DNA from: a virus
Lineage: Duplodnaviria > Heunggongvirae > Uroviricota > Caudoviricetes
Length of the DNA stretch: 46,161 nt
Reading direction: 5' to 3' (one strand)
IMG/VR virus record: IMGVR_UViG_3300028048_001412
Location: 237,858 to 284,018 of that record
Below are positions 12,603-43,997 of the stretch, one piece after another (the stretch's first letter is position 1; every line of letters starts with the position of its first letter). Both the position numbers and the translations under genes were made by a program. The notes beneath the pieces were generated by a model. The model was not told the origin of the DNA. It did no database searches and worked only from the letters and a program-made list of their open reading frames with translations.

Positions 12603-13811
12603 TTACTCTAATATTATAATTGTGAGATCTTTTCCACCATGTTCTACTTCAAATCTATCTGCATATTTTTTAGGAATGTAAATATTTTTAACAAAACCTT
12701 TTATTTTAATAGGTTCATCTGATTTAAATTCTACTTCTTTTATATGAATACTATGCTCATAAATTGGATTTTCATTATAATTATCTACTTGAATAGTTTT
12801 TCCACTAAACTTATCTATATATAAATCAAATAAGAAATTACTTATTCTTAAAAGATCATCTGTATATACTTTAGGAATAATTGCTTTATTATCTTTACTA
12901 GGCCAAAAAGTAGGAAGTTTCATTTCAATGTCCAATTCCCATCCTCTATTGTCTATTTCTATATTATTTAATCCAGGACCAATTGTATAAGAAGAATGTA
13001 AACCTGATAATTTTATAGGCTCTTTTAAATCTCCAGTATAATTTCCAATCCAATATAAATTTTCTTTAGTATATATACTTTTTAAATTGAATTTTTCTCC
13101 ATCTCCAAAATTATAAGAAGGACCTATTTGAGCATTTTTATTACAAAATATATTTGGATTTTCTAAATGAACATAACTTTTATCTAATGTTTGGCTATAC
13201 CAATTAGTTCCTTTATCTGAAATTATTTCAAATTTTTTAAATTTATCTGGTTGATTAAATAAATATAATTCAGTAGCATCATGACCTGTCTTTAAATTAA
13301 ACATTTTTAATTTATTTAGATTGATATTGCCTTTAACATTATGAAATATAATATCTTCTAAATTTCTAGTATCTAATAAATGAGATGGAAAATCATATTT
13401 TTTAACTAATGGGGTCTCTGGGAAATATAAGTTTATTTCTTTATTTTTATCTTTTCTTTCCACTGAAGAATGAATAGATCTGAGAGAATATTCCAATTTC
13501 ATTATATTAAATCTTTGTAAAGAAGTAGTATAAATAGGAGTTGCTGATTTATCTCTAGTTTTATTAGTAATTACATTATCCCATAAATTATTCACACTTG
13601 CTCCATATCTTGCTTTTCTTCTAGGAGCGAAACTATCTCCATTTTTAACAGGAATAATATAATGTTTATCATCTATTATTTGAGAATGAATTTCTCCATT
13701 ATGTTTTTTATCTCTAATGTATAATTCTTTAATATCGTAAAATGCAACATGTCCAGTTTTTGGACCTGCATCACCGAATTTAAACGGAAATAATAATTTT
13801 CCCATGTTCAT
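12603..13811 (-). CDS. ~400-aa paralog family member 1, function unknown
   Basis: HYIIPVK, VKGNINLNKL, NIYIPKK motifs. Confidence 0.7.
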   Translation of the reverse strand: MNMGKLLFPFKFGDAGPKTGHVAFYDIKELYIRDKKHNGEIHSQIIDDKHYIIPVKNGDSFAPRRKARYGASVNNLWDNVITNKTRDKSATPIYTTSLQRFNIMKLEYSLRSIHSSVERKDKNKEINLYFPETPLVKKYDFPSHLLDTRNLEDIIFHNVKGNINLNKLKMFNLKTGHDATELYLFNQPDKFKKFEIISDKGTNWYSQTLDKSYVHLENPNIFCNKNAQIGPSYNFGDGEKFNLKSIYTKENLYWIGNYTGDLKEPIKLSGLHSSYTIGPGLNNIEIDNRGWELDIEMKLPTFWPSKDNKAIIPKVYTDDLLRISNFLFDLYIDKFSGKTIQVDNYNENPIYEHSIHIKEVEFKSDEPIKIKGFVKNIYIPKKYADRFEVEHGGKDLTIIILE

Positions 13812-15096
13812 CTAACTCCAATTTATTACAAGGTTCTAAAATATTCTTTTTAATATATTCAACACAATCAGCATTATTTATATTTATTAAATCTTTTTGA
13901 TTTTTATTGAAATATATCTTAATTCCATCTCTAGCTCTAATTATATTAAATTGTCTATTAATATTTAATAAATATAATACTGCTATTCCATTTAAATCTA
14001 ATTTTGAAGTTTCTAATTCTTTTATTACTATTTGATCATCTTTTCTTCCATTATTGTTCATCAATTGTATATGTGGACAATTTATTTTATCTATTATACA
14101 AGTATATCCTTTTGATTTCACAAGATTTTGAGCATTAACATCTGTCGCATCATTTGCAAAATTCATAGTTCCATTAAACCATAAAGTAGATTTTTTATCG
14201 CTATTTATTTCTAATTTATTAGGTCCATTACATATATATGCAGAAAACATTTTTGAATTTACTTCTAAAGGCTTTTTTCTTCCATTAGTATTTACATAAT
14301 ATAAATGCATATTAGGACAACTAATCTTATTAATTTCTTTTAATCCTTCATTATTTTCATCACTAATTCTTATATTATTTAAAGTTAAATTCTCTTTGGC
14401 TACTAATTCGGAAATTTTAGTAAATTTAATAGATGGATAATTTCTAACTTCAACTTTTTCATTATAAGGAACATCATTATAACTATTATAATGGCGAAGA
14501 CTCTGATAAAATAAATTATTAGTTATATTTAAATATATTAAATCTTTAGATAAATTATCAAATTTCAAATCATGACTGGAATAAGTATTATCTATTAATA
14601 GCTTTAATCTTTTAGTATTATTAAGATTTATATTACCAGATATTATTTGTTCTAAAATTATAGTTCTTTCATTATTTATGATTTTAGAAGGAATAGTAAA
14701 TTCAATATCCCTATTATTTTTAAATTTGAATATTGCATTTTTTCTTTCTATTTTTCCTTCCATTTTATCTTTTAATAAAGAAGTTATTTCTATATTTTCT
14801 TTTATTAATTTTAAGAATAATTTAGTATATAATGGATTTACATTTATATCATTATGAGTCACTTTAAAATAAGAATTGTCTCCTGTCATATCAAAGTTAT
14901 CAAAAGAAGATTTAAAAGGATAAAAAGTATAACATTTGCCATTTATTTTTCTAGTAATAGGAACCCAGAACTTTTTAAGAAATTTAGGGACATCATCAGG
15001 ATAAATTAAATGTTCAGAATTAAATGTTTCTTCTCTGATATAATCAAATCTAAATAAATTTTCTTTTCTAACAAGAGGAAATGTAATCTTATTCAT
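13780..15096 (-). CDS. Paralog family member 2
   Basis: TFYPFKS, LYTKL, ISGNINLNN, IVIKEL. Confidence 0.7.
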   Translation of the reverse strand: MNKITFPLVRKENLFRFDYIREETFNSEHLIYPDDVPKFLKKFWVPITRKINGKCYTFYPFKSSFDNFDMTGDNSYFKVTHNDINVNPLYTKLFLKLIKENIEITSLLKDKMEGKIERKNAIFKFKNNRDIEFTIPSKIINNERTIILEQIISGNINLNNTKRLKLLIDNTYSSHDLKFDNLSKDLIYLNITNNLFYQSLRHYNSYNDVPYNEKVEVRNYPSIKFTKISELVAKENLTLNNIRISDENNEGLKEINKISCPNMHLYYVNTNGRKKPLEVNSKMFSAYICNGPNKLEINSDKKSTLWFNGTMNFANDATDVNAQNLVKSKGYTCIIDKINCPHIQLMNNNGRKDDQIVIKELETSKLDLNGIAVLYLLNINRQFNIIRARDGIKIYFNKNQKDLININNADCVEYIKKNILEPCNKLELDEHGKIIISV

Positions 15097-15255
15097 TTAA
15101 AATGTTAACCTTTCTTTTAATTCCAATCTTGATTTAATCGCAGATTCTAATTTATTTATAAATTCCATATCATCTTTACATAATATTTGAGTTAAATCAT
15201 ATTGATGAACTTCTAATATATGGATTAATCTTTTTGCTTCAATTCTATCTATCAT
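15097..15255 (-). CDS. Small hypothetical protein (52 aa)
   Basis: MIDRIEAKRLIHILEVHQYDL... exactly fills the gap, with an ATGA overlap upstream and an abutting start downstream. Confidence 0.55.
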   Translation of the reverse strand: MIDRIEAKRLIHILEVHQYDLTQILCKDDMEFINKLESAIKSRLELKERLTF

Positions 15256-16568
15256 ATCCAAATTACCTCTAATAATGATTGATCTTTCATTCTATTCTTT
15301 ATTTTTATATTAGACATTTGAGATTTTGGCAATTTCAATAATTTATTTGTTTCTACTCCAGATACACTAATATAAATTTTATAATTTTTAGGGTTATCTA
15401 TTTTGGCAATAACCATATTATTCAAATTATCTTCTATGTTTATATTTATATTATTAGTTTTATTCTTTAATAATGTTAATTTGCCAATTTTAACATAAGC
15501 ATTTCTTTTTGAATCGAGTGTTATTTGACTTGTTATTGCAAGTTTAGTAGTAGAAAATTGTAATTTGTCAGTTAATTCCATCTCTTCGAAATTAACTGCT
15601 CCATTATTATTCATAAATACAAATAAAGTCCCAGCAGTTATTTTAGAAAGAAATCTAGTAGGTTTAAATTGATTAGTTTCAAAGAATCTACTTTCTATTT
15701 TTATATTTTTTAAACATTTTATAGTAAAATCTGGATTTTCAAAGAAACAATCTCTTAATTCTATATTATTTGAAGCCTCTATTCCTTTTAAATTACAATT
15801 TTCTTTTTCAAAAGATACATTATCAAAAGTAAGAACTCCGTTACCTATTAAATAATCATGGTTTATTTTTAAATTTAATACTGAATTTAAATCTTTATTT
15901 TTTATAGTAAGACTATTAAATATATTAGATTTTGAAAATATATTAGCTTCAATATCATCTGTTGTACTTACATCTGGTGTATTTCTATTTAATTCTATAT
16001 TTGCATTTTTTAATTCATCTAAAATTAAAGTTCCTCCAGGCCAAGATTTAAGTTCAATATCTCCTAGATTTAATGGAACCATAAATGGAATTAATTCTAT
16101 ATTTACTATTTTTTTACATTCTCTAAACCAAATATCTAATTTATTTTTCATATTAGTTGGAGCAGCCCAATCAGTCTTAATATTTGACAAAGGAGGTGAT
16201 ACTCTATAAACATCAAATATAGTATTTTCAGGAAGAGATAATTTTAATAAATTTATATATATGATTTTTACTTTATTCTTATATAATGAAGGATCATCAT
16301 CTTTGAATATACCATCTTTATAAGAATATGCTTTTTCTCCAGCTAATGCATTATTATAATCATTATTATTTTCTAAAGTTTCTATTGCGTGTTTTTTAAA
16401 TGGCCAAACAATATTTCCTTTAGTTCCTCCTGTAAAACGATCTCTAGCTATAGCAATGTTTTTATCATGTATATTTTCATAATAATTTTTTATAGATATC
16501 CATTTTCTATGAATTCTATCATTTGCATGAGCATAATTTACATATATATTTTCAGATAATTTATTCAT
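15252..16568 (-). CDS. Paralog family member 3
   Basis: MNKLSE start, IVWPFKK, LKLPKS, ends EVIWI. Confidence 0.7.
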   Translation of the reverse strand: MNKLSENIYVNYAHANDRIHRKWISIKNYYENIHDKNIAIARDRFTGGTKGNIVWPFKKHAIETLENNNDYNNALAGEKAYSYKDGIFKDDDPSLYKNKVKIIYINLLKLSLPENTIFDVYRVSPPLSNIKTDWAAPTNMKNKLDIWFRECKKIVNIELIPFMVPLNLGDIELKSWPGGTLILDELKNANIELNRNTPDVSTTDDIEANIFSKSNIFNSLTIKNKDLNSVLNLKINHDYLIGNGVLTFDNVSFEKENCNLKGIEASNNIELRDCFFENPDFTIKCLKNIKIESRFFETNQFKPTRFLSKITAGTLFVFMNNNGAVNFEEMELTDKLQFSTTKLAITSQITLDSKRNAYVKIGKLTLLKNKTNNININIEDNLNNMVIAKIDNPKNYKIYISVSGVETNKLLKLPKSQMSNIKIKNRMKDQSLLEVIWI

Positions 16569-17792
16569 TTATGCGATTTTCACTCCATTTACCCAAATAT
16601 TTATAGGAGAAACATATTCAAAATTCAAATGCTCTATAATTTCTCTATAATCTTTATTTTTAAAATTAAATATATAATTTCCCGAAGTTTTAATGTAAAT
16701 ATTTAATTTTTCTTTATTTTTAAAATTAATATTATCTATATTAAATTCATTTGAAGACATAGAATAAATTTGAATCATTTGGCAAGATAATTTATTTATA
16801 TTTAATTCTTTTCCTCCATTTATTGATAAATATAAATATTTAGTATCTATTTCCTTAAATCTATATCCTTCCGAATTTTGAAAATTAAGTTTAATACTAG
16901 GCGATTTTAATATTATATTAGTTTTATTTAAATATTTATTGTCTTCTATTGAATAAAGTCCTACTTCCATTGCATTATGAGCTTCTAAAATGACTTCATC
17001 TTTTGTTTCTATTATTCCTTCTGAAATATTTATATTTTCTTCTGCAAATACTTGCCTTAAATTAGTATCATAATCTGAAATTATAAATCTTCTCGCATCA
17101 AAATATCCAGTCGCTATCTTATTAGTATTATTAAATATTAATTTTTTTATATGAGATCTTAAATTATTATCATATTTAAAAGATTTTAATTTCCAATCTT
17201 TATGAAATAATTCTTTACTATATTCGTGTGTCGATCCTCCATCGAACACATCTATTTCTTTAATTTCATTAAGATATAATTTACCAGAACAATCTAATAA
17301 AAGGACTTTTTCAAATATTTGAGAATATATTTTTGATAGGAATATATTTTTATCAACGGATTCTTTTATTATCAAAGATTTATTTCTATGATAATCAGAT
17401 ATTGTTCTTGAATCCGCAGATACATATAAATTATCATCTAATTTACTATCTAATTGTAATTTCTTAAATAGAGATTTGATTAAATGAATTAAATAAAAAT
17501 CATTAATATTATCCATATTATACTCTTGTAATCCAAAATTACAATCTAACCATTGATAATGAGATATATATTCATATTTTTTAATGCTCTTCTTAGCGCC
17601 TTCAGCCTCTGGATATAATTCAAGGTGAAGATTATATCTTATATTATATAAATTAGATGATTTTACAGGAGCCAAATATTTAAATCTATTATTTTTAATG
17701 AATTGATCATTTCCTAAATGATCTTTTTCACTTAATGAAAGTCTTTGACCACCGAAAGTATAAAATTGTAATTTATCTGCTAATTTATACAT
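16569..17792 (-). CDS. Paralog family member 4
   Basis: MYKLAD start, YLAPVKS, CSGKLYLNEI, LNINKL. Confidence 0.7.
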   Translation of the reverse strand: MYKLADKLQFYTFGGQRLSLSEKDHLGNDQFIKNNRFKYLAPVKSSNLYNIRYNLHLELYPEAEGAKKSIKKYEYISHYQWLDCNFGLQEYNMDNINDFYLIHLIKSLFKKLQLDSKLDDNLYVSADSRTISDYHRNKSLIIKESVDKNIFLSKIYSQIFEKVLLLDCSGKLYLNEIKEIDVFDGGSTHEYSKELFHKDWKLKSFKYDNNLRSHIKKLIFNNTNKIATGYFDARRFIISDYDTNLRQVFAEENINISEGIIETKDEVILEAHNAMEVGLYSIEDNKYLNKTNIILKSPSIKLNFQNSEGYRFKEIDTKYLYLSINGGKELNINKLSCQMIQIYSMSSNEFNIDNINFKNKEKLNIYIKTSGNYIFNFKNKDYREIIEHLNFEYVSPINIWVNGVKIA

Positions 17793-17810
17793 ATGTTATA
17801 TAATTTCCAT

Positions 17811-19058
17811 TTAAATATAATGAATTTGACCGTGATATTTTCCAGTTACTTTGCCTTTAAATCTTTCAGGAATATAAACCCAAGTATTTTGTTTATTATG
17901 ATTAAATTCAATAGGACGTTGTTCTACAATATTTATTTCTATTGTATCTTTTCCTTCTGGTAAAATAATATCTTTAATTTTAATGGCCGTTTCATCAAAA
18001 GGGGTAGTTGCAATATTGCTCTTATAATTTTCTACATAAATATCAATATGATCTCCAGTAAATTTATCAATATTTAATCTTTTAAATGCAGATAATCTTA
18101 AATCTAATCCTCTTTTAACTTTTATATCATTTATTTCTGTTAAATCTTCATTATCAGTAGCTGTTATATAAGTAATATCAGAATCTACTATATAATTAAG
18201 ACGTTTTTGATTCTCCATATATAATCTTACAATTGGAGATTTTAATATTATAGGTTCTTTTTGTTCTAATATATAAGATTTAAAAAATAAATTTTTACCT
18301 GCTTCTAATTTTTTAATATTAGAAAAACCTTCTTTTATAGTTATTCCTTCAATATGAATGTGATTATGACAATTTAAACACCCGCCTTCCATAATATGTA
18401 ATATCCAATTAACTTTTTTATCGGAATCTGGTTTTATAATAGTAAAACTTGCCAAATTATAATTATTATGTTTTAAAGAAAAAACATTGAATAAATTAGA
18501 TGGAGGTGATGATGTATTTTTTCCAACTACTAGATCTACATTTTCACAATCTTTCAAATCTACTACTGCATTAGATGAATTAGTAATATTTAAAACATTA
18601 TAGAATCTATATAAATCATTATTCAATTCAAATGGGCCTGATAATTTATCTATTAATAAATTTGGCTTAAAATATTCTTTGATATCTTTATTTATTACTT
18701 CGAAATAATTATCTTTGTTATTATATTTTATTATTTCTCTTATTTTTTTATAAAGAGTCTCTTTATAAAAATAATTAGTAGAATCTAAAATATTTGATTT
18801 ATAATAACTATTCAAATATTCATCTGCATTTATTCCCTTAAACTTAAATCTTTTGAATGGTAATATATAATGAATATCTATATTGTCGCTTTTCTTAATT
18901 ACATCATAAATATCGCTGCTCCTTATTAGTTTAATTTCTCTTCTTTTGATAAAATCGTGTCTTTCTAAATAATCTTTAAGAGAAATTGACCATTTATAAT
19001 CATCTATTTTTATAGGACTTACATGACTAATATATAATTCTGATGATAATTTATTCAT
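17811..19058 (-). CDS. Paralog family member 5
   Basis: MNKLSS start, HYILPFKR, LYKKI, LNIDKF, VYIPER. Confidence 0.7.
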   Translation of the reverse strand: MNKLSSELYISHVSPIKIDDYKWSISLKDYLERHDFIKRREIKLIRSSDIYDVIKKSDNIDIHYILPFKRFKFKGINADEYLNSYYKSNILDSTNYFYKETLYKKIREIIKYNNKDNYFEVINKDIKEYFKPNLLIDKLSGPFELNNDLYRFYNVLNITNSSNAVVDLKDCENVDLVVGKNTSSPPSNLFNVFSLKHNNYNLASFTIIKPDSDKKVNWILHIMEGGCLNCHNHIHIEGITIKEGFSNIKKLEAGKNLFFKSYILEQKEPIILKSPIVRLYMENQKRLNYIVDSDITYITATDNEDLTEINDIKVKRGLDLRLSAFKRLNIDKFTGDHIDIYVENYKSNIATTPFDETAIKIKDIILPEGKDTIEINIVEQRPIEFNHNKQNTWVYIPERFKGKVTGKYHGQIHYI

Positions 19059-19061
19059 TTT

Positions 19062-20222
19062 TTAAATCCATTTTACCTTTTGTTTAATCAATTCTAAAGT
19101 CAAATCTTTTGAACAATTTACTTTCCATTCTATTTTTGATTCAATTTCTTTTGGTAATATTATTTTAGGCATAAAAATACGACCAATATGATTAATAACT
19201 GGAAAATAGAGTTTTAATTTATCATTTAATAATTTAATATTCTTTATGTATAATTCACTTCTTTCTAAACTAGATAATTGTGAATTACTATAATCTGTTA
19301 CTCCTTCTGCAAAATCAATATCTATATGATCTGCTGTTAATTCATCTATCTCTATTTTTAAAATATCGTCACTTTTATAATGATTTTTAATTCTCCCGTA
19401 TAATTTATTGCAATTAACTTTCCCTAATATACAAACATTATAATCATATTTTTCATTTTTAATTATAATATTATTTGAATTTATAATATTATCTCTGTAA
19501 TTGCACATTCTATTATATATAAATAATTCATGAGATGAATTAATTTCAACAGGACCATCAAATTCAACATCTTCTAATGATATATTAAAAGCTTTAATAT
19601 TTTCAATATTATTATAATTTATAACTCCTGATTTTATATATATTAAATCTTTTCCTACTAATTTCTTATCTTTATTATTCAAAGTATTTAATTTAAATCT
19701 ACTAGTAGAAGTTAATCTTAATTTATCAAATATATAATCTTTATTTTGAATATTTATTTCTCTAATTGGTTTATCAAATGAACTTAAAAGACTAATATTA
19801 ATATTTTTACAAATTCCGCAATTAAGAGTAGAATCATCATTTAAATGTAAATTTATTTCATAATTTTTAAACCAGTTGGGTAATTCAATGTAAGCATTTG
19901 TTTTTTCATTATGAATTTCAATTACATTATCATTATAATCAGGAATATTTAAAGTTTTGCCGTTTAATTCTGGCAAATCTAAAGAGAGACTTGCTAACTT
20001 AAATAATATTATTAAATATTCTTTATAATCTTCTTCTATTAAACATTTATTTGATTGGTTTTCATCCAATTTTCCAGTATAATTTGAAAATTTTATAGGA
20101 AAACAATAACCTAAATTTTTAACATTAGTTTTTTTATCTAAATGAAGATAATTTCTAACTTCAAATGGATTAAGATGATATTTATTTTTCTTTTTAAATA
20201 AATTTCTGATATTTATACCCAT
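19062..20222 (-). CDS. Paralog family member 6
   Basis: YCFPIKF, IEIDEL, IILPKE, ends KVKWI. Confidence 0.7.
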   Translation of the reverse strand: MGINIRNLFKKKNKYHLNPFEVRNYLHLDKKTNVKNLGYCFPIKFSNYTGKLDENQSNKCLIEEDYKEYLIILFKLASLSLDLPELNGKTLNIPDYNDNVIEIHNEKTNAYIELPNWFKNYEINLHLNDDSTLNCGICKNINISLLSSFDKPIREINIQNKDYIFDKLRLTSTSRFKLNTLNNKDKKLVGKDLIYIKSGVINYNNIENIKAFNISLEDVEFDGPVEINSSHELFIYNRMCNYRDNIINSNNIIIKNEKYDYNVCILGKVNCNKLYGRIKNHYKSDDILKIEIDELTADHIDIDFAEGVTDYSNSQLSSLERSELYIKNIKLLNDKLKLYFPVINHIGRIFMPKIILPKEIESKIEWKVNCSKDLTLELIKQKVKWI

Positions 20223-21343
20223 TTTATATCTACTCTTGATTTATAATCTATTTCGAATTTATATTTATCTTTTATTTTTCTTGGTAAATAAAATACAGTT
20301 ACTAAATTACCATATGATGTTCCGCTATCTTTTTTAATTTTTATAGGTAATTCTGGATTTAAAGGCTCTAAATTATAAATTGTAATCTCTGATAAATCAC
20401 CTGAAGAATTTATTTTATATTCTATCTCATTACATTTTAAATGCATTATCATATATTTTTTAAATGCAGGGCCCGATTCTAATTGTAATCTATTTGTTTT
20501 TATATCACCGTAAATATCGTAATAATTATGAGTTCCGTGATTATCAACTCTATAACATAAATCTTCGCATTCTATATTTACTCCAGAAGAACTATGATTA
20601 TCCTGTTGATGTATATATACATATTTTCCTTTTAATATTAATGGTTTTTCATGCCCAATATAGTCTATAATTCCTGTTAATACTAAATTTTTGGACTCTA
20701 TATATAATTCTTCATACTCATTGAAATAGATATCAGTTAAATCAATATTATTATTTCCTATTATTTTTTTAGCATTAAGAATTATTTTCTTATTATGAGT
20801 CTCTGAATTATCAATTGAAAAATCATCAAAAATCCAAGTATTATGATTTATTATCAAATCTTTTTTAGAATGTTTATTTTTAATTAGTACATATTTTAAG
20901 TTTTTTAAATTTAATGTTCCTTCAAAATCATTGAATATAACTTTATCCCAAGCATAAAAATCAGATAAAACATTTATTTCTGAATTTGAGTTTTGATTTT
21001 GACAAATATGTAATTCTTCTTCATATCCTATCTCATTTTTCACAAGAGATATATCATTACTCATTTGTAATTTATATTCTACTTTTTTTCTATTAATTTG
21101 TCTATAACTACATTTATATAAATTTAAGAATTCTTTTTGGCATACTTCTGCAACTAAACCATCTTGACTAAATTCATAGTGTAAATATCTATTGCTTAAA
21201 CCATCTCTTTGAAAATTCCATTTCTTTAATGGATAATTAGATTCAATTACATTTTTTAAAGAAGGATTATTCTTTAAATAAGGTATTAAATTACTAATTG
21301 ATACTGTTCCTTGTGGAGTTCTTAATTTTATACTTTCTTTCAT
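20213..21343 (-). CDS. Paralog family member 7
   Basis: NYPLKK, FEGTLNLKNL, FYLPRK, ends DIKWV. Confidence 0.7.
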   Translation of the reverse strand: MKESIKLRTPQGTVSISNLIPYLKNNPSLKNVIESNYPLKKWNFQRDGLSNRYLHYEFSQDGLVAEVCQKEFLNLYKCSYRQINRKKVEYKLQMSNDISLVKNEIGYEEELHICQNQNSNSEINVLSDFYAWDKVIFNDFEGTLNLKNLKYVLIKNKHSKKDLIINHNTWIFDDFSIDNSETHNKKIILNAKKIIGNNNIDLTDIYFNEYEELYIESKNLVLTGIIDYIGHEKPLILKGKYVYIHQQDNHSSSGVNIECEDLCYRVDNHGTHNYYDIYGDIKTNRLQLESGPAFKKYMIMHLKCNEIEYKINSSGDLSEITIYNLEPLNPELPIKIKKDSGTSYGNLVTVFYLPRKIKDKYKFEIDYKSRVDIKWV

Positions 21344-21361
21344 ATTAAATAATACTTTTCT

Positions 21362-22519: not shown

Positions 22520-22729
22520 TAATCTTGACTACTTTTCAATTCTTTTAATAATTCTCTTTCATATATCTTATCATAATAATATTCATTTACTAATCTTTTA
22601 GTTCTTACATCTGAAATATTATGTTCTATAAATAAATTCTCTGAAGTATTTATTGCTTCTTTCTTAATCTTTTTCAATTGCAATCCAGTCATTTCCTATC
22701 AAGCTCCTTTTCTATATTAATTTTAAGAA

Positions 22730-24721: not shown

Positions 24722-24739
24722 TTTTAAACTCCTTTTAAA

Positions 24740-33000: not shown

Positions 33001-33029
33001 ATTATACTGGATTTTTCGTGAATTTTCAA
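33001..33029 (-). promoter_or_regulatory. Sigma-A/70-type promoter for paralogs 14 to 9
   Basis: Minus strand TTGAAA, 17-nt spacer, TATAAT, followed by AAAGGAG. Confidence 0.7.
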
Positions 33030-33053: not shown

Positions 33054-33084
33054 AAAAGACAGATGTAATATCTGTCTTTTTTTT
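33054..33084. terminator. Intrinsic terminator (bidirectional) after the nrd operon
   Basis: AAAAGACAGAT-gtaat-ATCTGTCTTTT with A/T tracts on both sides. Confidence 0.85.
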
Positions 33085-33786: not shown

Positions 33787-33800
33787 TTTAATTCACCTAC

Positions 33801-34484: not shown

Positions 34485-34490
34485 AATTCA

Positions 34491-35570: not shown

Positions 35571-35575
35571 TTTTA

Positions 35576-36043
35576 TTAATCCTTTTCTTTCAATGGAATT
35601 ATTTTTTGATTAGATGACCCTCTAAATTCTAAAGATAAGTCTTTTTTACTTTCAATAAATGGACCATCCACTAAAAAATCCACTTGTTTTAATATTTTAT
35701 CAGTAAATTCAGTATTAGGAATATTTTCTTTATTATATCCAGTATATAACCATACATTTTTCTTTAAATCTTTTATTTTATTTAATATATTTAATACTCC
35801 CTCTTGATTCAAAGGATCTAAAGGTTCTCCACCTAAAATGGTTATTCCATCATATTGAGATTTAGATAATTCATTATAAATATGATTTAATAATTTATCA
35901 TTTAATTTTTGACCGTAATTAAAATCCCAAGCTATTTTATTAAAACATCCTTCACAATGAATATTACAACCGGAAACAAATATAGATAATCTTATTCCTT
36001 TACCATTTGCTATGTCATTTGTTATTATTTGAGCGATATTCAT
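35576..36043 (-). CDS. nrdG: Anaerobic ribonucleotide reductase activase (copy 1)
   Basis: DIANGKGIRLSIFVSGCNIHCEGCFN, GITILGGEP, WLYTGY, LVDGPF, FRGSSNQ. Confidence 0.95.
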   Translation of the reverse strand: MNIAQIITNDIANGKGIRLSIFVSGCNIHCEGCFNKIAWDFNYGQKLNDKLLNHIYNELSKSQYDGITILGGEPLDPLNQEGVLNILNKIKDLKKNVWLYTGYNKENIPNTEFTDKILKQVDFLVDGPFIESKKDLSLEFRGSSNQKIIPLKEKD

Positions 36044-38253
36044 TATTTTTCTTCCTCAACTTCCATTTCTTTAATGCTTACATGCTCAACTCTTTCATCT
36101 ATTTCTTGAGTTCTACCTTGGTTCCAATATTGTGAACCCAAATATCCACAAGTTCTTCTTGAAACATACATTTTTCCTTGATCTCTATTATGACAATTAG
36201 GGCATTCCCAAACTAATTTTCCAGTTTCATCTTTAATTATATTTATTTGACCTTCATATCCACAATTTCTACAAATATCTTGTTTTAAATTGATTTCTGC
36301 ATACATAATTGAATTATAAATATGTTGAAGAATTTTAATTATTGCATCTAAATTATTTTGCATATTTGGCAATTCAACATAAGAAACAGCACCACCTGGG
36401 CTTAATGCTTGATATTCACCTTCTAAAGTTAATTTATCAAATGCTGAAATATTTTCTCTAACATTAACGTGATATGAATTAGTAATATAATTATGATCAG
36501 TAACTTCTTTAATTATGCCAAATCTCTTTTGTAAACATTTAGCAAATTTATAAGTAGTAGATTCAATAGGAGTTCCATATATTGAATAATCTATATCTTC
36601 TTCTTTTTTCCATTTAGCGCATTTATCATTAAGGAATTTCATTATTTTCATACCTAATTTTTTACCTTTTTCAGAGGTATGAGATTCATTTACCATTGCA
36701 TATACACATTCATATAATCCAGCATATCCTAATGATATAGTAGAATAACCATGATATAATAAATTATCTATTGTTTCCCCTGGTTTTAATCTTGCCAACG
36801 CTCCATCTTGCCACATTAAAGGAGATACATCTGATAATGTTCCTTTTAATCTTTCATGTCTTATTTGTAATACTCTATGACACATTTCACATCTTTCATC
36901 TAATAATTGCCAGAATTTATCTTCATCACCTTTAGAACTTAATGCCACATCTGGAAGATTGATTGTGCACACTCCTTGATTAAATCTTCCCCAATATTTA
37001 TGTTTTCCTTTTTTAGAATTTAATGCGTGAGCTGGATCTTCCATTTCATCAGAAAATCTATCTGGAGTAAGAAAACTTCTACATCCCATACAACTATACA
37101 CGTCACCTTTTAATTCTTTCATTACTTTAGCACTTATATAATCAGGAACCATTCTTTTTGCACTACATTCAGCGGCTAATTTTGTTAACCAGAAATATTC
37201 AGTTCCTTCTTTTATATTATCTTTATCTAAAACATATATTAATTTTGGAAAACTAGGATTAACCCAAGTTCCAGAAGAATCTTTAACTCCTTTAATTCTT
37301 TGTTCTAACATTGTTTTTATAAGTAAAGCCAAATCTTCTTTTGTTTGAGGATCTTTTACTTCATTTAAATACATAAATACAGTAATAAAAGGAGCTTGCC
37401 CATTAGTTGTTTGAAGAGTTGTATATTCATATTGAAGAGATTGAATTCCTTGTTTTACTTCGTGCTCTAATTCTTCTTTTATTATTTTATTTTTTAATTT
37501 AGTATCTAATCCTTCAATTTTATCTAAACGTTCTTTAATTGATTTCCTACTTATATCTACAAAAGGAGCCAAATGAGATAAAGTAATAGTTTGACCTCCA
37601 TATTGATTTGAAGCAACTACTGCTGAAATTTGAGAAGCTAAAGTGCAAGCCACTCTAAATGAATGAGGTTTATCTATATGATAACCCGAAATATTAGTTC
37701 CATTTTGTAACATATCTTCAAGATTTACTAAACAACAATTATGTTCTCTATGAATCATATAATCTTCATCGTGAATATGAATTATTCCTTCTTCATGTGC
37801 TTTTGCCAAATCTTTAGGAACAATATATTTATTAGTATAATATCTTGAATATTCTCCTGCGACATAATCTCTTTGAACAGAAAGGATAGTTGGATTCTTA
37901 TTTGAATTTTCTTGTTTTACTTCTTCATTAGTATTATCTAATACTTCATTTATCCTAGCATCAATTTCACTTTTATTTCTAATTTCTCTTTTCTCATATC
38001 TATATTCAATATAACTTTTAGCAACATTAAAATCGACTTTTGCTAATATTTGTTCTAATATATCTGATATTTCATCAGTATTGACATCTCTATTTATTTT
38101 TTGAAGTTTAGATACTGTTTTATTTATTATATAAACAATATCATCTTCTTGTAAAACATTATTACAACTAGCATTAGTCTTTTCTATTGCTTGTCTTAAT
38201 TTGTTAATATTAAATTCTACTCTTTTTCCATTGTTTTTAATTACTTGATTCAT
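36043..38253 (-). CDS. nrdD: Class III anaerobic ribonucleoside-triphosphate reductase
   Basis: N-terminal ATP cone, HIHD, NCCL, QYGGQT, FPKL, MGCRS, GRFNQGV, YITNSYH, two CxxC motifs, glycyl-radical RRTCGYL. Confidence 0.97.
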   Translation of the reverse strand: MNQVIKNNGKRVEFNINKLRQAIEKTNASCNNVLQEDDIVYIINKTVSKLQKINRDVNTDEISDILEQILAKVDFNVAKSYIEYRYEKREIRNKSEIDARINEVLDNTNEEVKQENSNKNPTILSVQRDYVAGEYSRYYTNKYIVPKDLAKAHEEGIIHIHDEDYMIHREHNCCLVNLEDMLQNGTNISGYHIDKPHSFRVACTLASQISAVVASNQYGGQTITLSHLAPFVDISRKSIKERLDKIEGLDTKLKNKIIKEELEHEVKQGIQSLQYEYTTLQTTNGQAPFITVFMYLNEVKDPQTKEDLALLIKTMLEQRIKGVKDSSGTWVNPSFPKLIYVLDKDNIKEGTEYFWLTKLAAECSAKRMVPDYISAKVMKELKGDVYSCMGCRSFLTPDRFSDEMEDPAHALNSKKGKHKYWGRFNQGVCTINLPDVALSSKGDEDKFWQLLDERCEMCHRVLQIRHERLKGTLSDVSPLMWQDGALARLKPGETIDNLLYHGYSTISLGYAGLYECVYAMVNESHTSEKGKKLGMKIMKFLNDKCAKWKKEEDIDYSIYGTPIESTTYKFAKCLQKRFGIIKEVTDHNYITNSYHVNVRENISAFDKLTLEGEYQALSPGGAVSYVELPNMQNNLDAIIKILQHIYNSIMYAEINLKQDICRNCGYEGQINIIKDETGKLVWECPNCHNRDQGKMYVSRRTCGYLGSQYWNQGRTQEIDERVEHVSIKEMEVEEEK

Positions 38254-38310
38254 AATTTAGACTTCCTTTCTGAAAAGCTTTAAAAATATTATTCTATATA
38301 TTATACGTTA

Positions 38311-38351
38311 AAAATAAGAGAATTTCTATAAAATTTATTATGAAATTCTCT
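38311..38351 (-). terminator. Probable intrinsic terminator after paralog 15
   Basis: AGAGAATTTC (38317-38326) / GAAATTCTCT (38342-38351) inverted repeat, followed on the minus strand by TATTTTT. Confidence 0.55.
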
Positions 38352-38399
38352 CAAATTATTCAATATATTCAACTATTTTTGACTAATATTTAAACAATA

Positions 38400-39584
38400 T
38401 TATGCATTAAATTCATACATTCTTCCGCACCAACCGTTTTGTTTAAAATTAATAGGTTTTATATTTTTCTTACCGTTATATTCTCCTAAATTTATAGTTA
38501 AATTAGTTCCTTTAAGAAATCTTATTTGACAATATCTATTCCCAACTATATTATCTATTTGTATTTTTCCTTCTAAATTAGGTGCTTCTAAATTAAAAAC
38601 GACCATTTCTTTATCTCTTAAATCTAATGTTCCTATATGGAGATTTAATTTATTTACAGGATTTTTATTATATTTTCTATCATATTGTTCTGCATCAATA
38701 TTAAAATCATTTAATCTCAATTGTTTTATAAATATTTCTTTTTTAGAATGTAATTTAGTAGACATTTGACCGCAATCTAATTTATCTATTTGTATTTTAG
38801 TATCCCATCTTTTATCAGTATCTCTTATATGAAATATATCTGTTTTACATTCTTCAATTATACATTCTGAACTATAAATTGTTAAGTCAAAACAATTTAA
38901 TTTCTTTGTTTCTATTTTACTTCCTGAATTTAAAGATATATTTTTAAATCTAAAATTATCTCCTATTAAATAAGTCCCATATAAGTTTAAATTCACTTTA
39001 TCATTTATATATTTAAAGAAATTAGGATTAAGAATGACTCCTTTAGAATGAATAAATAAATGACTTAAATGAGGACATTTTATTATCTTATCATTATCTG
39101 TAAGGTCTAAATTCAACGTTTTTCCATAATAAGGTAAATCTAATTCTTTAAATCTTACAGGCTTAATTTCACTTTCAAAGAATGGAAAATCTATTTTTAT
39201 TTTGTAATCTTTTTCTTTTTGACCTGTAATTTTTCCTATTCCTTTTTGTTTAACTATTAATGATTTATCTTTATTATATTTTATTTCTCCTATTTTACCT
39301 AAAGTATAAGCATATAAATCATCTTCATCATCAAAGAAAGGTCCATTGTCTAAATTTGGACCTTCATGAGAACCATCAGCATATTTTCCTCTCGTTAAAT
39401 CTAAAGTTTCAGGCAAAGAATTCATTAAATCAGTAATATTTTTATAATTCATTGCATGATAAGTGATGGGTTTTATAGATTCTAATTTGCAAGGATAAAA
39501 TAAACAAGGATAATTTATTTTATCGTCATTATCAGTATAACCATATATATGAGGATATTTAATTTTATCATATATTTTAGACAT
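38400..39584 (-). CDS. Paralog family member 15
   Basis: LFYPCKL, YGKTLNLDL, IQIDKL, LHIGTL. Confidence 0.65.
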   Translation of the reverse strand: MSKIYDKIKYPHIYGYTDNDDKINYPCLFYPCKLESIKPITYHAMNYKNITDLMNSLPETLDLTRGKYADGSHEGPNLDNGPFFDDEDDLYAYTLGKIGEIKYNKDKSLIVKQKGIGKITGQKEKDYKIKIDFPFFESEIKPVRFKELDLPYYGKTLNLDLTDNDKIIKCPHLSHLFIHSKGVILNPNFFKYINDKVNLNLYGTYLIGDNFRFKNISLNSGSKIETKKLNCFDLTIYSSECIIEECKTDIFHIRDTDKRWDTKIQIDKLDCGQMSTKLHSKKEIFIKQLRLNDFNIDAEQYDRKYNKNPVNKLNLHIGTLDLRDKEMVVFNLEAPNLEGKIQIDNIVGNRYCQIRFLKGTNLTINLGEYNGKKNIKPINFKQNGWCGRMYEFNA

Positions 39585-39588
39585 TTTT

Positions 39589-40146
39589 TTAACCTATGTA
39601 ATTTTGTTCGCAATAAGCTTCTTGACCTTCTAATGAATAATCTTTATCAAAATCATCTTTTGATATTTCACTTATTTCATTTGACTCTAAATATTCTCCT
39701 GATTTCCAATCTTTTATGAATTTATTAAGAGTATAACCTTTAGATTTTATTTCATATTCATAACATGCTTCATTTTCAATTAAATATATCTTTTTTCCTT
39801 TTAATACACAGGCTGCATTATAATCTAATTTATTCCATTTCAATTTAGGAGTAGATTCATCAGTATAATCTTTGACTTTAAATTGGCCTAATTTTTCAAA
39901 TGATTTCTTGAAATTAGAAAAATTAGAACAAAGACTTCTGATTAAATCTCTATCTTTTCCGTTTAATTTATTCCATAATTGTTTGTCTACTTTTTGAATA
40001 TTTAATATCCATTCCAAACTATCTTCTAAATCATTTAAATGTCTTAAAGAACCATAATTACTATCGTCTACTCCATCAATTACTTCTTCCAATTGAGCTA
40101 ATTGTTCTTCAGTAATTTGAATTTTCTTTTTAACAGATTTACTCAT
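39589..40146 (-). CDS. Hypothetical protein
   Basis: 185-aa ORF. Confidence 0.6.
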   Translation of the reverse strand: MSKSVKKKIQITEEQLAQLEEVIDGVDDSNYGSLRHLNDLEDSLEWILNIQKVDKQLWNKLNGKDRDLIRSLCSNFSNFKKSFEKLGQFKVKDYTDESTPKLKWNKLDYNAACVLKGKKIYLIENEACYEYEIKSKGYTLNKFIKDWKSGEYLESNEISEISKDDFDKDYSLEGQEAYCEQNYIG

Positions 40147-40167
40147 ATTATCATTTCATCCTAATAA

Positions 40168-40821
40168 TTATTCTAGACCGTTTTCACTTAATTCTCTAGT
40201 ATCATAAACATCATCTTTGGTTATATCATATATTACATTATCTTTATATTTTTTAGGATCGGCATAAGATTCAGTATAATTTATATTAAATTTATAAGCT
40301 GCATTACTATTTAAATATCCTACTATCCATCTTTTTTCATCTAATTGTAATCTAATAGGAAATACTTTATATTGTTTATTTACATTCATAATTTCAGTTT
40401 TAGTATCAAATAATTTTTTATTGTCTTTGAAAAAACTTGATATTCTTACTTCTTCTCCGTTAAATCCTTGTTGATTTTTCATGGACCAAGACATTCCTTT
40501 AAAGTTTTTTCTTCCTATTATGAATCCCATCTTATTATCCCAATATTTGAACCCTATAATTTCTCCCTTGTCTTTATTAACACAATAATCTAAAATATTT
40601 TTTTTATTTATAATAGGCTTGTTGAATACTGTATTTTTAGTTTCTGATAAATTAAATAATGTTGAAATGTATTTATCTAACATAGAATCTAAACCTGAAG
40701 CATAAGCAGGATAATATAATTCTTCTGCATCATAAATATAATAAAAATTTAATTTTTTAGACCTTTTCTTTAAATGTATGTCTTTTAATCCAAAAAACTC
40801 AGATTTAATCCATTCACCCAT
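40168..40821 (-). CDS. Hypothetical protein
   Basis: 217-aa ORF coupled to thyX by a TAATG overlap. Confidence 0.6.
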   Translation of the reverse strand: MGEWIKSEFFGLKDIHLKKRSKKLNFYYIYDAEELYYPAYASGLDSMLDKYISTLFNLSETKNTVFNKPIINKKNILDYCVNKDKGEIIGFKYWDNKMGFIIGRKNFKGMSWSMKNQQGFNGEEVRISSFFKDNKKLFDTKTEIMNVNKQYKVFPIRLQLDEKRWIVGYLNSNAAYKFNINYTESYADPKKYKDNVIYDITKDDVYDTRELSENGLE

Positions 40822-41495
40822 TATTGTTCCACCTTTGGATATTTACCACAACCAAATTTTTCATCACAAGTTTTAGTTTTTTCACATTTAGCATATAATA
40901 ACATATCACATAATTCTTTCCATTCTGGACTATAATTACTTAAGGCTTCTTTTAAATCATTCATTAATTTCCTAAATTCCCAATAAGCTCTATTACACAT
41001 TCTAACTCTTGACATATCCATTAAATTACGCATATTTTTCATTACACTTAATTTAGTAGTAGCGCCTAATGGAATTAACATTTGAGCATCTTCTTTTGGA
41101 ATGCCGAATTCATTCATTAAAGAATTTATAACTATTCTTATTTTTTCAATTTCTGATAAATATAATCTTTTTGCTTCTGGATTATTTTCTATTTTAGGAG
41201 GAATTACTGCATTTAATTCTTTACTAAAATCCACATATCTTGTTGATTCCTGCACAATTGATAATCCATCCGACACATGTCTCATGAACTCTCTTATTAC
41301 TCTATTAGAATAACCTTCTAATGTAAAATAAACTTCCGCAAATTCCAATACTCTTCCATGGCCATCTTTAATACATTGCAATCCTCTTTTATAATTCTTT
41401 TCTTCATTTGTAATATCAGATCCATAAGCAACTCCGGCCATTTTACCAGCTAAACTAATAGGATTTTTAATTGTTTCATTTAAAATTTTAATCAT
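40821..41495 (-). CDS. thyX: FAD-dependent thymidylate synthase
   Basis: GHGRVLEFA, MRHVSDGLSIVQESTRYV (ThyX motif), EDAQMLIP, RMCNRAYWEFR. Confidence 0.92.
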   Translation of the reverse strand: MIKILNETIKNPISLAGKMAGVAYGSDITNEEKNYKRGLQCIKDGHGRVLEFAEVYFTLEGYSNRVIREFMRHVSDGLSIVQESTRYVDFSKELNAVIPPKIENNPEAKRLYLSEIEKIRIVINSLMNEFGIPKEDAQMLIPLGATTKLSVMKNMRNLMDMSRVRMCNRAYWEFRKLMNDLKEALSNYSPEWKELCDMLLYAKCEKTKTCDEKFGCGKYPKVEQ

Positions 41496-41518: not shown

Positions 41519-42751
41519 TTATATTAATAATTTATGATTTTTTCCATTTTTATCGGTTATATTCAATCTCAATTCTCTATTTCCTTTTATTTGTTGAGGA
41601 ATTATTTTTTCAAATTCTTTTTTCTTTTTATTTATTTCTTTGAAAAATAAATCTTCAATATTACTTTTATCTATAATTATTTGGATATTTGAATAATTTC
41701 CATCATATAACATTTCTAGAAATGAAGGCTGATTATTTAAGTTTTCCCAATTCAATTTATGTATATGTAATATTATTTTATTTGAATTTTTTATTCCTGA
41801 AGAAGGATCGTACAAATATAATCTATCTTTTAAATTTAATTCTCTAATATATATTTCATTTAATTGTCTTTTTAAATTTGTTACTGGAAAGGAATCACCA
41901 TCTTCTAATTTTAAAGCTTCAGTATCTATTAAACTATCTATATAATGTACTGATCCTTCATCATAAGTTTCTATATTAACACACTTAAAATATAAGTTGC
42001 AATTCACTATTCTAGTATTTTCTTGTAATTTACTTTCACTTTTAATAAAAAAAGCATCTAAATAAGTTTTATCTCCAATTTCAGGTATATTTTCTAAATC
42101 TGAGTTTTTTATATATAAATTAGGAGCTTTTATTGAATTAACATTTTTGAATTTAATTTTTTCCAATACTTGATCGACATCAAATACTCGTAAATCAATA
42201 GGTTTTTCAAATTTTAAAGTAATAATATTTTTCTTTTCATTTTTTATATTACCAACTATTAATTCTGAAAGATTAACACTTATGTTTATTTTTGATTCAT
42301 TGTTTTCTTCTTTATCATTTTCAAATATAGGTTTATACCAGCGAAATTCTATTTTAGATTCAGTAAGATTATTAAGATTTATATTTTCAAATCCTGATAA
42401 TGTTAATTTTCCTCTTCTAAAATTATTACATCTATATTTCCAATGAAAATTATTGTTTAAATTAGGGGCATTAAATGTAAGTGAATGTGAATTTTTCGGA
42501 CTAATTTCTAAATCTTCAAATAACATTTCATTAAGTTCATATTCTAATCCTAATTTTTCAGTTAATAATCTTTCCACATTATATATGTAATTTTCTATAA
42601 ATTCATCGTGAGTGTTAATATTGATAGATAATAATCTGTTCATATTTAACAATGCTTTACTTAATGTTTTTATATAAGGAACATCTTTATAATCAGGATA
42701 TGATTTTTTCATAGGAACATAATAATCTTTATCAGCCTTTAAATTAGACAT
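41519..42751 (-). CDS. Paralog family member 16
   Basis: YYVPMKK, FENINLNNL, IYIRELNL, IIIDKSNIE. Confidence 0.65.
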   Translation of the reverse strand: MSNLKADKDYYVPMKKSYPDYKDVPYIKTLSKALLNMNRLLSININTHDEFIENYIYNVERLLTEKLGLEYELNEMLFEDLEISPKNSHSLTFNAPNLNNNFHWKYRCNNFRRGKLTLSGFENINLNNLTESKIEFRWYKPIFENDKEENNESKINISVNLSELIVGNIKNEKKNIITLKFEKPIDLRVFDVDQVLEKIKFKNVNSIKAPNLYIKNSDLENIPEIGDKTYLDAFFIKSESKLQENTRIVNCNLYFKCVNIETYDEGSVHYIDSLIDTEALKLEDGDSFPVTNLKRQLNEIYIRELNLKDRLYLYDPSSGIKNSNKIILHIHKLNWENLNNQPSFLEMLYDGNYSNIQIIIDKSNIEDLFFKEINKKKKEFEKIIPQQIKGNRELRLNITDKNGKNHKLLI

Positions 42752-42785
42752 TTTATAAACATTATATTTTCCAATTTTTTATTTC

Positions 42786-43997
42786 TCATATATTTATATT
42801 GGTTTGTAATTTTCCCTCTTTTAAAATATAATTGATTCCATTTGAGGCATTAATATTTATAGTATAAAGATTAGCCTCGTCTCCATAATTTTTTCTGAAT
42901 TTATTAAATATAAATTTTATTTCTTTATATTCCAAATTTGATTTTAATATATCTACTTGAATTTCTTTTTTAAAATCATTAACTAATTGTTTAAATTCAA
43001 ATGATTCATAATTTTTTATTTCTAACTCTTTTATATTCAAACAAATAAAATTATTTTTCCGATTTCTAAATGAAATATTTCCATTGTCACTACTATTATC
43101 TATAATTAATTTATTTATGTTAATTCGTGTCATTCCTTTTCTATCGGCAGTATCAATAATTATTACTTTACTTTTTATTTCAGGTTCAATTGTAGAAGTG
43201 TCATAGATACTTATATTTTTACATTGTATTTTCCCATCACCAAATATATTAGAGCTTTTTAAATAAAGTATTCTTGAATTGTTATAAAATTTATTATCTA
43301 TAAATTCACACCCTTTATTTAATAGGCATTTCTCTATAGCGGCATTATATTTGAGATAATTCATTTTAAGAGGAACATTAAATATACATTTTGATAATTC
43401 AACTCCTATGCCTTCTTTAGTGATATTAGATGATAACATAATAGAATCACAATCACTATTTATTTCTATTGAATCAATATTATCATTTTTAGGCAATACT
43501 TTAAATAATTTATTAATGTTTTTTAAATTTACTTGAATTTGTTTTTCATTATGAAGATAATTTAAAAATAATGCTTTACAAGTCATTTTTCCAAAATCTA
43601 TATCATAAAAATCATCTAATTGTAATGTTTTAGAATAATACCAATCATAAGAAGAATTATTATTAAATATATGATTAAATTTCTCACCTTTTATAACGTA
43701 TTTATTCTCATTATCATTCCACAATCCTAATGAAACATCTTCTCCTTTATAATTCATTTCTAAATTTCTAGAACCTATTTTATTTAATTCACCCTTATAT
43801 AATAATAAATTCGGCTCTAAATACACCATTCCAGAACTAATAGTATCATATTTTTTTCTAGTATCTAAATATATTTTATTATTTACAGATAATTTGCTAA
43901 ATTTTGAACATACTCCATCATCTAGGTATTTTGTTCCATTTCCTCCATACCAGACTCCTTTATGTTCTTTAATTGTCGTAAATTTACTTTCATTCAT
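42786..43997 (-). CDS. Paralog family member 17
   Basis: LLLYKG, ININKL, LNIKELEI, VDILKSNLE (close to member 16); the N-terminal Pro motif is not clear. Confidence 0.55.
   Translation of the reverse strand: MNESKFTTIKEHKGVWYGGNGTKYLDDGVCSKFSKLSVNNKIYLDTRKKYDTISSGMVYLEPNLLLYKGELNKIGSRNLEMNYKGEDVSLGLWNDNENKYVIKGEKFNHIFNNNSSYDWYYSKTLQLDDFYDIDFGKMTCKALFLNYLHNEKQIQVNLKNINKLFKVLPKNDNIDSIEINSDCDSIMLSSNITKEGIGVELSKCIFNVPLKMNYLKYNAAIEKCLLNKGCEFIDNKFYNNSRILYLKSSNIFGDGKIQCKNISIYDTSTIEPEIKSKVIIIDTADRKGMTRININKLIIDNSSDNGNISFRNRKNNFICLNIKELEIKNYESFEFKQLVNDFKKEIQVDILKSNLEYKEIKFIFNKFRKNYGDEANLYTININASNGINYILKEGKLQTNINI

Follow-up and report, generated by a model that had tools for sequence, protein, structure and literature searches.

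Long beta-helices act as binding rods, and giant viruses carry expansions in which a short tag is joined to repeats (F-box/FNIP, ankyrin); keeping many versions of one scaffold is a strategy known mainly from giant viruses and intracellular parasites. Here we analyzed a window of 46,161 nucleotides (nt), positions 237,858 to 284,018 of the IMG/VR virus record IMGVR_UViG_3300028048_001412, and found that it contains a tandem array of 17 highly diverged genes whose products are predicted to be beta-helix proteins. The whole 284-kb element is called G000 below, and positions are those of the window unless prefixed with G000. The array proteins resemble described right-handed beta-helix proteins (EtpA, pertactin/Vag8, polygalacturonases, AlgE4, tailspikes, CAP, and Caldicellulosiruptor adhesins) in the predicted fold of their C-terminal approximately 270 residues (Z 11 to 15), but they differ in their low identity (4 to 14%), in having no secretion signal and no conserved catalytic residues, and in their arrangement as a tandem of 17 to 18 genes; the top structural matches are tied, with no family singled out. 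The array has the same logic of a tag plus a diverged solenoid, in many copies, as the giant-virus expansions, but there is no sequence match and the setting here is a bacterial plasmid. The orphan family and its array setting appear to be new, while the fold and tag-plus-solenoid expansions elsewhere are known. We tentatively favor the reading that these are tandemly expanded, non-secreted beta-helix proteins that would form an intracellular panel of non-catalytic binders.

Among described elements, pXO16 of Bacillus thuringiensis israelensis has a VirB4-like ATPase and a three-gene order in common with G000, but no match to the array-family profile was found in this 349.6-kb plasmid, and G000 differs from it in coming from the ruminant gut, in being AT rich, and in encoding its own DNA polymerase, primase, helicase, and gyrase. 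PMC12934698 describes Hodors as giant extrachromosomal Bacillota elements with VirB4/VirD4 that come from host-associated metagenomes, are found in viral collections, are larger than 300 kb, have 45 to 47% GC, and encode Rep_3 and sortases; in contrast, G000 is 284 kb long, has a GC fraction of 0.21 to 0.29 in the window, and gave no Rep_3 or sortase match in family scans. Inocles, according to PMC12340149, are likewise large Bacillota elements outside the chromosome, known from metagenomes of host-associated samples. On these accounts, Hodors and Inocles are different elements from G000, and the word "paralog" does not occur in the main texts of the two papers. Within the literature covered, with subscription papers and supplements outside its scope, we saw neither the array family described nor arrays of this kind reported for pXO16-like elements.

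The array occupies positions 12603 to 43997. As an initial annotation of the window had described, it consists of 17 co-oriented open reading frames (ORFs) of 376 to 438 aa (mean, 405; standard deviation, 18), all on the minus strand and with a combined length of 20,715 bp, many of which abut or overlap (11 of the 16 gaps between neighbors lie between -32 and +34 bp). The lack of DNA-level identity among them was also borne out, with a repeat finder returning short AT-rich matches only. The array is broken up by an IscB gene, small ORFs, two nrdG genes, nrdD, and thyX. The 284-kb record is circular, since its two contig ends share 132 bp that differ at 2 positions, and a frame of approximately 402 aa that starts at G000:892 and spans this junction was overlooked initially. 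The N-terminal part of its product is beta-periodic and its C terminus is a BRCT domain; we list it only as a candidate member because its mean shuffle z to the 17 members is just 0.79. The genes are as follows, with the evidence used for each, where the profile tests are the leave-one-out tests described below.

12603 to 13811, minus strand: member 1, 402 aa, core, with IIPVK and GNINL (leave-one-out rank 1, E 2.4e-6)
13780 to 15096, minus strand: member 2, 438 aa, with FYPFK and GNINL (ORF, motif, C-half profile test)
15252 to 16568, minus strand: member 3, 438 aa, with VWPFK (ORF, phmmer, C-half profile test)
16569 to 17792, minus strand: member 4, 407 aa, core, with a predicted C-terminal right-handed beta-helix (model, leave-one-out)
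17811 to 19058, minus strand: member 5, 415 aa, core, residues ~74 to 386 likely replaced in strain X4 (leave-one-out, strain contigs)
19062 to 20222, minus strand: member 6, 386 aa, with CFPIK (leave-one-out, motif, C-half profile test)
20213 to 21343, minus strand: member 7, 376 aa, core, with a predicted beta-helix over residues ~105 to 376 (leave-one-out, model)
21362 to 22519, minus strand: member 8, 385 aa, core, with LFPTK and GDINL (leave-one-out, motif)
25015 to 26235, minus strand: member 9, 406 aa, with VYPFR (motif, C-half profile test)
26878 to 28131, minus strand: member 10, 417 aa, with RFPAK and a weak profile link (motif, profile)
28140 to 29306, minus strand: member 11, 388 aa, with a C-terminal patch, 28183 to 28343, strongly altered in X3 and X5 (strain contigs)
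29307 to 30497, minus strand: member 12, 396 aa, without the P-x-K motif (leave-one-out, motif scan)
30484 to 31779, minus strand: member 13, 431 aa, without the P-x-K motif (motif scan, C-half profile test)
31780 to 32970, minus strand: member 14, 396 aa, with VVPMK, heading a likely operon of 5 genes (promoter scan, C-half profile test)
38400 to 39584, minus strand: member 15, 394 aa, with FYPCK (motif, phmmer, C-half profile test)
41519 to 42751, minus strand: member 16, 410 aa, with YVPMK and ENINL (motif, C-half profile test)
42786 to 43997, minus strand: member 17, 403 aa, without the P-x-K motif (C-half profile test, language-model neighbors)
45713 to 46161, minus strand: candidate member 18, C-terminal part, ending in BRCT (BRCT E 3.4e-10)

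The initial annotation had guessed at a beta-solenoid body, and the AlphaFold models and structure searches returned a beta-helix in both members modeled, 4 and 7. The single-sequence model of member 4 is confident over residues ~270 to 407 only, and this C terminus aligns to the C-terminal beta-helix of CAP (Z 11.2; root mean square deviation [rmsd], 3.0; 128 aligned). The model of member 7, built from a 12-member alignment (predicted local distance difference test [pLDDT], 66; predicted template modeling score [pTM], 0.63), has a helical, low-confidence N terminus followed from about residue 110 by an unbroken beta-solenoid, with block pLDDT values of 64 to 92 over residues 131 to 376, so that parallel beta-coils extend over more than 200 residues of the predicted structure. 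Over 230 to 270 residues it matches EtpA (Z 14.9, rmsd 6.6, 272 aligned), polygalacturonase (Z 14.5, rmsd 4.5, 249 aligned), Vag8 (Z 13.9), AlgE4, and tailspikes at effectively tied Z values of 12 to 15. These two models predict a right-handed beta-helix as the body of both proteins. No Foldseek match in PDB or BFVD reached E ≤ 0.001 (best BFVD match, E 5.5e-3), and the ESM Atlas gave no usable match for member 7; language-model neighbors of the non-core member 17, at <0.9, include beta-helix families and are a lead only. Among other solenoid families, no member matched LRR_5 (PF13306 matches three places in G000, none of them in the array), PF13349 (DUF4097/DUF2807) had no match in G000 in a scan in which 7 of 14 controls matched, and the DUF4097/DUF2807-type structures 3lyc and 3ljy scored Z 10 to 11, not above other beta-helices. 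A resemblance to the BspA cap, noticed by eye, was not supported by the LRR_5 scan or by the comparisons.

The array proteins appear to be non-catalytic, judging from their sequences. We found no invariant polar residue in the body, the invariant columns being the start Met and one N-terminal Tyr, although poor alignments make this a weak test, and catalytic or metal-binding residues of a pectin-lyase-like groove are not conserved in the members in the same poor alignments. Judged by hydropathy, no member has a hydrophobic stretch (maximum 19-residue Kyte-Doolittle mean, 0.48 to 1.26), in agreement with the earlier statement that signal peptides and transmembrane segments are missing, and Ala, Gly, and Thr contents are low. 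All 13 of the aromatic P-x-K/R motifs previously quoted were found, in 13 of 17 members, as were GNINL (twice), GTLNL, GDINL, and ENINL. A regular expression for the aromatic-P-x-K motif, tuned on the members themselves, matched 12 of 18 candidates and 1 of 145 other ORFs (shuffle mean, 0.3; maximum, 3); the 13th motif, NYPLK, was caught only by the looser pattern P.[KR], and members 11, 12, 13, and 17 (w28140, w29307, w30484, and w42786) have none. The proposed N-terminal docking module shrinks to a 5-residue motif in a low-confidence region of the models.

On the tentatively favored reading, each protein would consist of ~100 to 130 variable, partly helical N-terminal residues with the aromatic-P-x-K motif, followed by ~270 residues of stacked beta-coils that would offer a long binding face. 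The repertoire would have been built by duplication, divergence to ~20% identity, retention of the copies, and occasional replacement of an allele or patch, and every paralog would grip its own host protein or nucleic-acid structure. Host defence and replication factors would be the likeliest targets, to be neutralized by the element as it enters new hosts. A binder repertoire inside the cell is suggested by the lack of export signals and catalytic residues, by the BRCT fusion in the candidate member, by copies that are kept while they drift, with blocks replaced now and then, and by the counter-defence-type enzymes that the element also encodes; the missing hydrophobic segments, the low Ala, Gly, and Thr contents, and the BRCT domain on candidate 18 point to the intracellular site. 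The models and profile tests support, at the level of prediction, the earlier preference for a non-secreted binder repertoire over tail fibers.

The same folds could instead belong to surface adhesins or recipient-recognition factors for mating, each for a different glycan on the recipient surface and exported without a Sec signal through the transfer channel or a Tad-like pilus. EtpA and Vag8 are among the best matches of member 7, a Caldicellulosiruptor adhesin is the top, non-significant Foldseek match (Z 9.3 to the member 4 model), and a TadA/VirB11-like ATPase and a transfer module are encoded on the element; pXO16 itself uses surface proteins for aggregation, according to the review PMC9673590. 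The members nevertheless have no signal peptide, transmembrane segment, or wall-binding repeat, features that many other genes of the element do encode. More than 35 kb also separates the array from the genes for the pilus and for transfer, and candidate 18 carries a BRCT domain of intracellular type. Adhesins of the tapirin, EtpA, or pertactin type would be expected to have an export signal or membrane anchor, and we consider this explanation rather unlikely.

Evidence that the array is a single family comes from collective rather than pairwise comparisons. No member-member match was found by blastp at E ≤ 0.01, the best phmmer E value between members was 0.04, and only 8 of 136 member pairs had a shuffle z of >5. 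In contrast, the mean Smith-Waterman shuffle z of each member to the others is 1.0 to 3.6, compared to 0.18 ± 0.41 in 59 size-matched ORFs of the same genome, the best of which reaches 1.46. In leave-one-out searches with composition-corrected hidden Markov models (HMMs), 5 of 18 candidates rank first (members 1, 4, 5, 7, and 8; E 6e-10 to 4e-3), and 5 more fall within the top 20. Without the composition correction, the left-out C-terminal half comes first for 13 of 17 members and outscores its own reversed sequence for 16 of 17, compared to first place for 5 of 18 N-terminal halves; thus, the claim of a conserved N-terminal module with a variable body was not upheld, and the body appears to give the more consistent family signal. 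A ratio of beta to alpha periodicity of ≥1.15 is seen in 17 of 17 members and 2 of 59 controls (p 6e-10). We take about five to eight core genes as homologous, and the remaining array genes are quite probably family members too. The array is likely one very old family, with a common ancestry of all 17 genes and a divergence down to about 20% identity, although the case is firm for about five core members only. The paralogy proposed initially is therefore partly supported, by the collective tests and not by blastp, phmmer, or the profile-profile comparison (hhalign of the 8 core against the 9 other members, Prob 0.06, from shallow alignments with no passing positive control), and the picture of an old gene-family expansion with a beta-solenoid body is supported by the z scores, the profiles, and the models.

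Alternatively, the array might not be one family, its ORFs falling instead into at least two groups of beta-helix proteins whose resemblance stems from AT-rich composition and beta-periodicity. Apart from the pairwise results and the tuned motif pattern, this would fit the failure of members 2, 3, 9, 10, 13, and 16 in the corrected leave-one-out test. Against it stand the tight length of 405 ± 18 aa, the occurrence of the motif in 13 of 17 members compared to 1 of 145 other ORFs, the excess of forward over reversed scores, and the insensitivity of hhalign at this alignment depth, and we find several unrelated groups an unlikely account.

Database searches returned no relative of the family. 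Pfam, PHROGs, NCBIfam, and PADLOC gave no meaningful match for any member (the best in Pfam, TagH_SH3-like at E 3e-4, was under the cut-off), a PDB sequence search gave summed polyubiquitin matches with 0 significant stretches, and a search with member 4 found only itself. A 9-member profile run against 1.84 billion representatives found 9 proteins, of which 8 came from the training genes and the last was a fragment, 95 aa long, of an allele of the remaining training gene. The family thus appears from its sequence to be an orphan with no homologue outside the element. Scans of viral contigs with member 5, with one neighbor gene, and with the VirB4-like protein alone found nothing, and of the 79 loci at 50 to 67% identity that an NrdD scan found, not one matched the family profile convincingly. 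We read five backbone relatives in full (G001 to G005, with 13 to 30 genes in common with G000), and the family search in related genomes proposed with the initial annotation came back empty for G001, G002, G004, and G005, which show no such cluster.

The array region is present in other samples. Among the matches listed, region 12600 to 22550 was found in 21 runs from 16 studies, mostly of bovine, sheep, and goat gut, and five runs (X2 to X6) were compared in detail. The array is collinear in X3, X4, and X5, at about 94 to 98% identity. In X4, contigs match up to 17901 and again from 18838, with 510 and 119 unlike letters following, a stretch that X3 covers; in member 5 the body was thus likely exchanged while the N terminus was kept, with no bridging contig. 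A dense altered patch at the C terminus of member 11 is common to X3 and X5. In the RNA run X2, 16 short contigs among the matches listed are identical to the window and include array genes, with DNA carry-over possible. X3 and X5 have no cover at 38.5 to 45.5 kb, which we did not count as gene loss since no contig bridges the stretch. Strain differences were taken from the best 40 of 1526 and the best 40 of 1035 rows, a small and biased sample, and 49 of those listed fall in member genes. The 31 substitutions scored in three genes comprise 20 synonymous and 11 nonsynonymous changes, with a synonymous fraction of 0.20 to 0.27 expected (p 1e-5). This excess of synonymous changes indicates that the array genes are maintained coding genes, and the array is under purifying selection in this small sample of sites.

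The element itself is likely a conjugative megaplasmid related to pXO16, as judged from its gene content, and not a phage. It encodes VirB4/TraC-like, FtsK-like, and TadA/VirB11-like ATPases, a CHAP domain and choline-binding repeats, and a replication set of DNA polymerase, primase, helicase, gyrase, and RecA. Among plasmids, the VirB4-like protein has its closest matches in 349.6-kb B. thuringiensis plasmids (28.6% identity over 82% of its length), in which three genes, including the FtsK-like ATPase, lie in the same order as in G000. The review PMC9673590 indicates that these 349.6-kb records are pXO16 and that its type IV secretion system is atypical, with no relaxase identified there. Relatives were also found at 24 loci of viral collections and in a genome bin of Lachnospiraceae at ~34% identity, and closer ones, with VirB4-like proteins at 50 to 56% identity, exist. 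The host is likely a low-GC Bacillota. G000 also encodes PARG, RNA ligases, Thg1, a CCA enzyme, QueC/QueE/FolE-like genes, and SmpB; PARG, RNA-repair, and queuosine-type genes are typical counter-defence and DNA-modification gear. Gene direction in G000 switches near 102 kb and 250 kb and the skew flips at ~12 kb of the window, which would place the end of the array, in all likelihood, at the terminus of replication.

One further explanation makes the array proteins clients or subunits, forming a scaffold or filament, of a MoxR-like AAA+ ATPase and its partner metallopeptidase. Such a pair is present, with the ATPase at G000:96821-98173 adjoining a DUF2201_N/DUF2201 vWA metallopeptidase at 98177-100060, and it is kept in five relatives, with AAA_5 matches for the G003 and G004 equivalents. 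The pair is, however, ~100 kb from the array (96.8 to 100 kb compared to 250 to 284 kb), it also occurs in G001, G002, G004, and G005, which show no array, and the AAA match in G000 is weak (E 0.025), making this reading quite improbable. It is highly improbable that the genes encode tailspike-like receptor-binding proteins or polysaccharide depolymerases of an unrecognized jumbo phage, despite the filing of the record as a virus, the Z values of 12 to 14 with tailspikes and glycosidases, and the phage-like replication and nucleotide genes, since no capsid, portal, or tail-structure family was found among 191 ORF sequences scanned with Pfam (main-strand ORFs of ≥170 aa outside the window and most of the larger window ORFs, with most ORFs of <170 aa outside the scan) and 96 with PHROGs, no catalytic residues are conserved, and no BFVD match reached E ≤ 0.001. 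Partial "terminase" matches look like intein or P-loop segments, and the lone "tail" match is an RNA ligase family. As the element looks like a conjugative megaplasmid, the phage frame of early or middle proteins used in the initial annotation is not supported.

Several observations weigh against the reading of a non-secreted, intracellular binder family. Only 2 of 17 members were modeled, both of them core members, with confidence over ~130 residues in member 4 and N-terminal pLDDT values of <50 in both. AlphaFold2 may over-predict beta-solenoids for repeat sequences, as reported for perfect repeats in PMC11795689; the array proteins have no perfect repeats. The structures matched best belong to extracellular adhesins, to glycan enzymes, and to tailspikes rather than to inhibitors that act inside cells, and PADLOC gave no match. 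No pairwise or profile-profile significance joins the 8 core members to the other 9, and 7 of 18 candidates fall below rank 100 in the corrected leave-one-out test. Four of the five backbone relatives and the pXO16-sized plasmid show no such array. Variation between alleles is not focused in the body, with differences of 0.058 and 0.063 per residue in the two parts of the protein in three allele pairs, and the omega of about 0.14 to 0.2 was obtained from 31 of 49 rows in three genes and is biased low by the dropping of 3 adjacent changes and a 15-row patch.

The other features of the window are as follows.

12403 to 12578, plus strand: left arm of a ~180-bp inverted repeat (81% identity) bracketing members 1 to 17
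12575 to 12597, minus strand: terminator-like hairpin at the array end
23444 to 24766, minus strand: IscB, an interrupting mobile gene missing in strain X3 (family scan, strain contigs)
33001 to 33029, minus strand: near-consensus sigma-A-type promoter (11/12), 31 nt before member 14
33328 to 41495, minus strand: interleaved block of two nrdG genes, nrdD, and thyX, which spans member 15 and is outside the family (family scan, strain contigs)
45544 to 45719, minus strand: right arm of the inverted repeat

A terminator-like hairpin at 33054 to 33080 directly precedes the member 14 promoter. Of the host-type sigma-A promoters that the array was said to follow, this near-consensus site stands, and promoter-like counts in the window are no higher than in shuffles (199 compared to 198.8 and 111 compared to 126.4). 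The inverted repeat has a partial third copy at G000:188472-188541, and its 15-bp core occurs three times, always between genes and once upstream of a helix-turn-helix gene; it could be a terminus, an operator, or a recombination site. A recent inversion between the arms is unlikely because GC skew and gene direction continue beyond the right arm. Searches with the core gave 0 viral and 2 chance metagenome matches, and an Rfam scan of 12000 to 46161 found no RNA family. As a separate observation, an intergenic, promoter-like motif of ~65 bp precedes plus-strand genes at G000:188576, 198312, 206070, and 243726.

IscB is a recent insertion, since one X3 contig joins across its site. The 250-bp non-coding stretch upstream of it (23444 to 25015 region) is likely an omega-RNA, with no Rfam match, and a second IscB-like gene lies at G000:226380-227666. 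X3 and X4 contigs depart from the window sequence at ~35.6 kb, just before nrdG/nrdD, so this block is likely variable, and the nrdD/thyX neighborhood, earlier read as a clue to function, says little for that reason. The nrdG copies, at 33328-33786 and 35576-36043, flank two unknown genes, and strain-specific insertions lie nearby. Elsewhere in the element, three small protein sets have common N-terminal modules and differing C-terminal domains (z 9 to 18): G000 892/25367/29510, 23267/234125, and 152580 together with window 44002-45525. Six ORFs (G000 2220, 108859, 116455, 127398, 135195, and 184306), three with DUF7487 matches, begin alike and resemble one another in patches at the DNA level; they are likely a mobile endonuclease-like family.

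The remaining backbone relative, the 265-kb element G003, has a large array of its own. Matches in blastp join 25 of its ORFs into one family, and 23 of these lie within about 41 kb that span the contig ends. The family members have a variable N terminus, a conserved cap (R-x-x-LTG-x-DCS...NGVC), and solenoid-type repeats, with LRR_5 in 6 of 19 scanned, and very diverse alleles; one member has many relatives at 65 to 90% identity in other assemblies. Like the G000 array, it is a co-oriented tandem of genes whose products have a variable N-terminal region followed by solenoid-type repeats, but its members are 260 to 790 aa long, are linked by blastp, and belong in part to LRR_5. No homology between the two families was detected, and the G003 array is thus a parallel case. 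It is conceivable, if doubtful, that pXO16-related elements of gut Bacillota each grow an antibody-like, allele-swapped library of solenoid proteins (18 of beta-helix type here, ~25 of leucine-rich-repeat type in G003), which would be delivered through the atypical transfer channel or made on entry and would disarm many host defence systems at once; if so, plasmids would have in such libraries a repertoire-based means of counter-defence that has not been described.

If the array proteins are indeed binders, ~7% of the plasmid genome would be spent on 17 to 18 separately maintained versions of one scaffold, and bacterial defence or replication proteins could have a new inhibitor in each paralog; the paralogs would be easy to screen. 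The array also points to a barely described class of giant elements related to pXO16 in viral databases, at least two of which carry large solenoid arrays.

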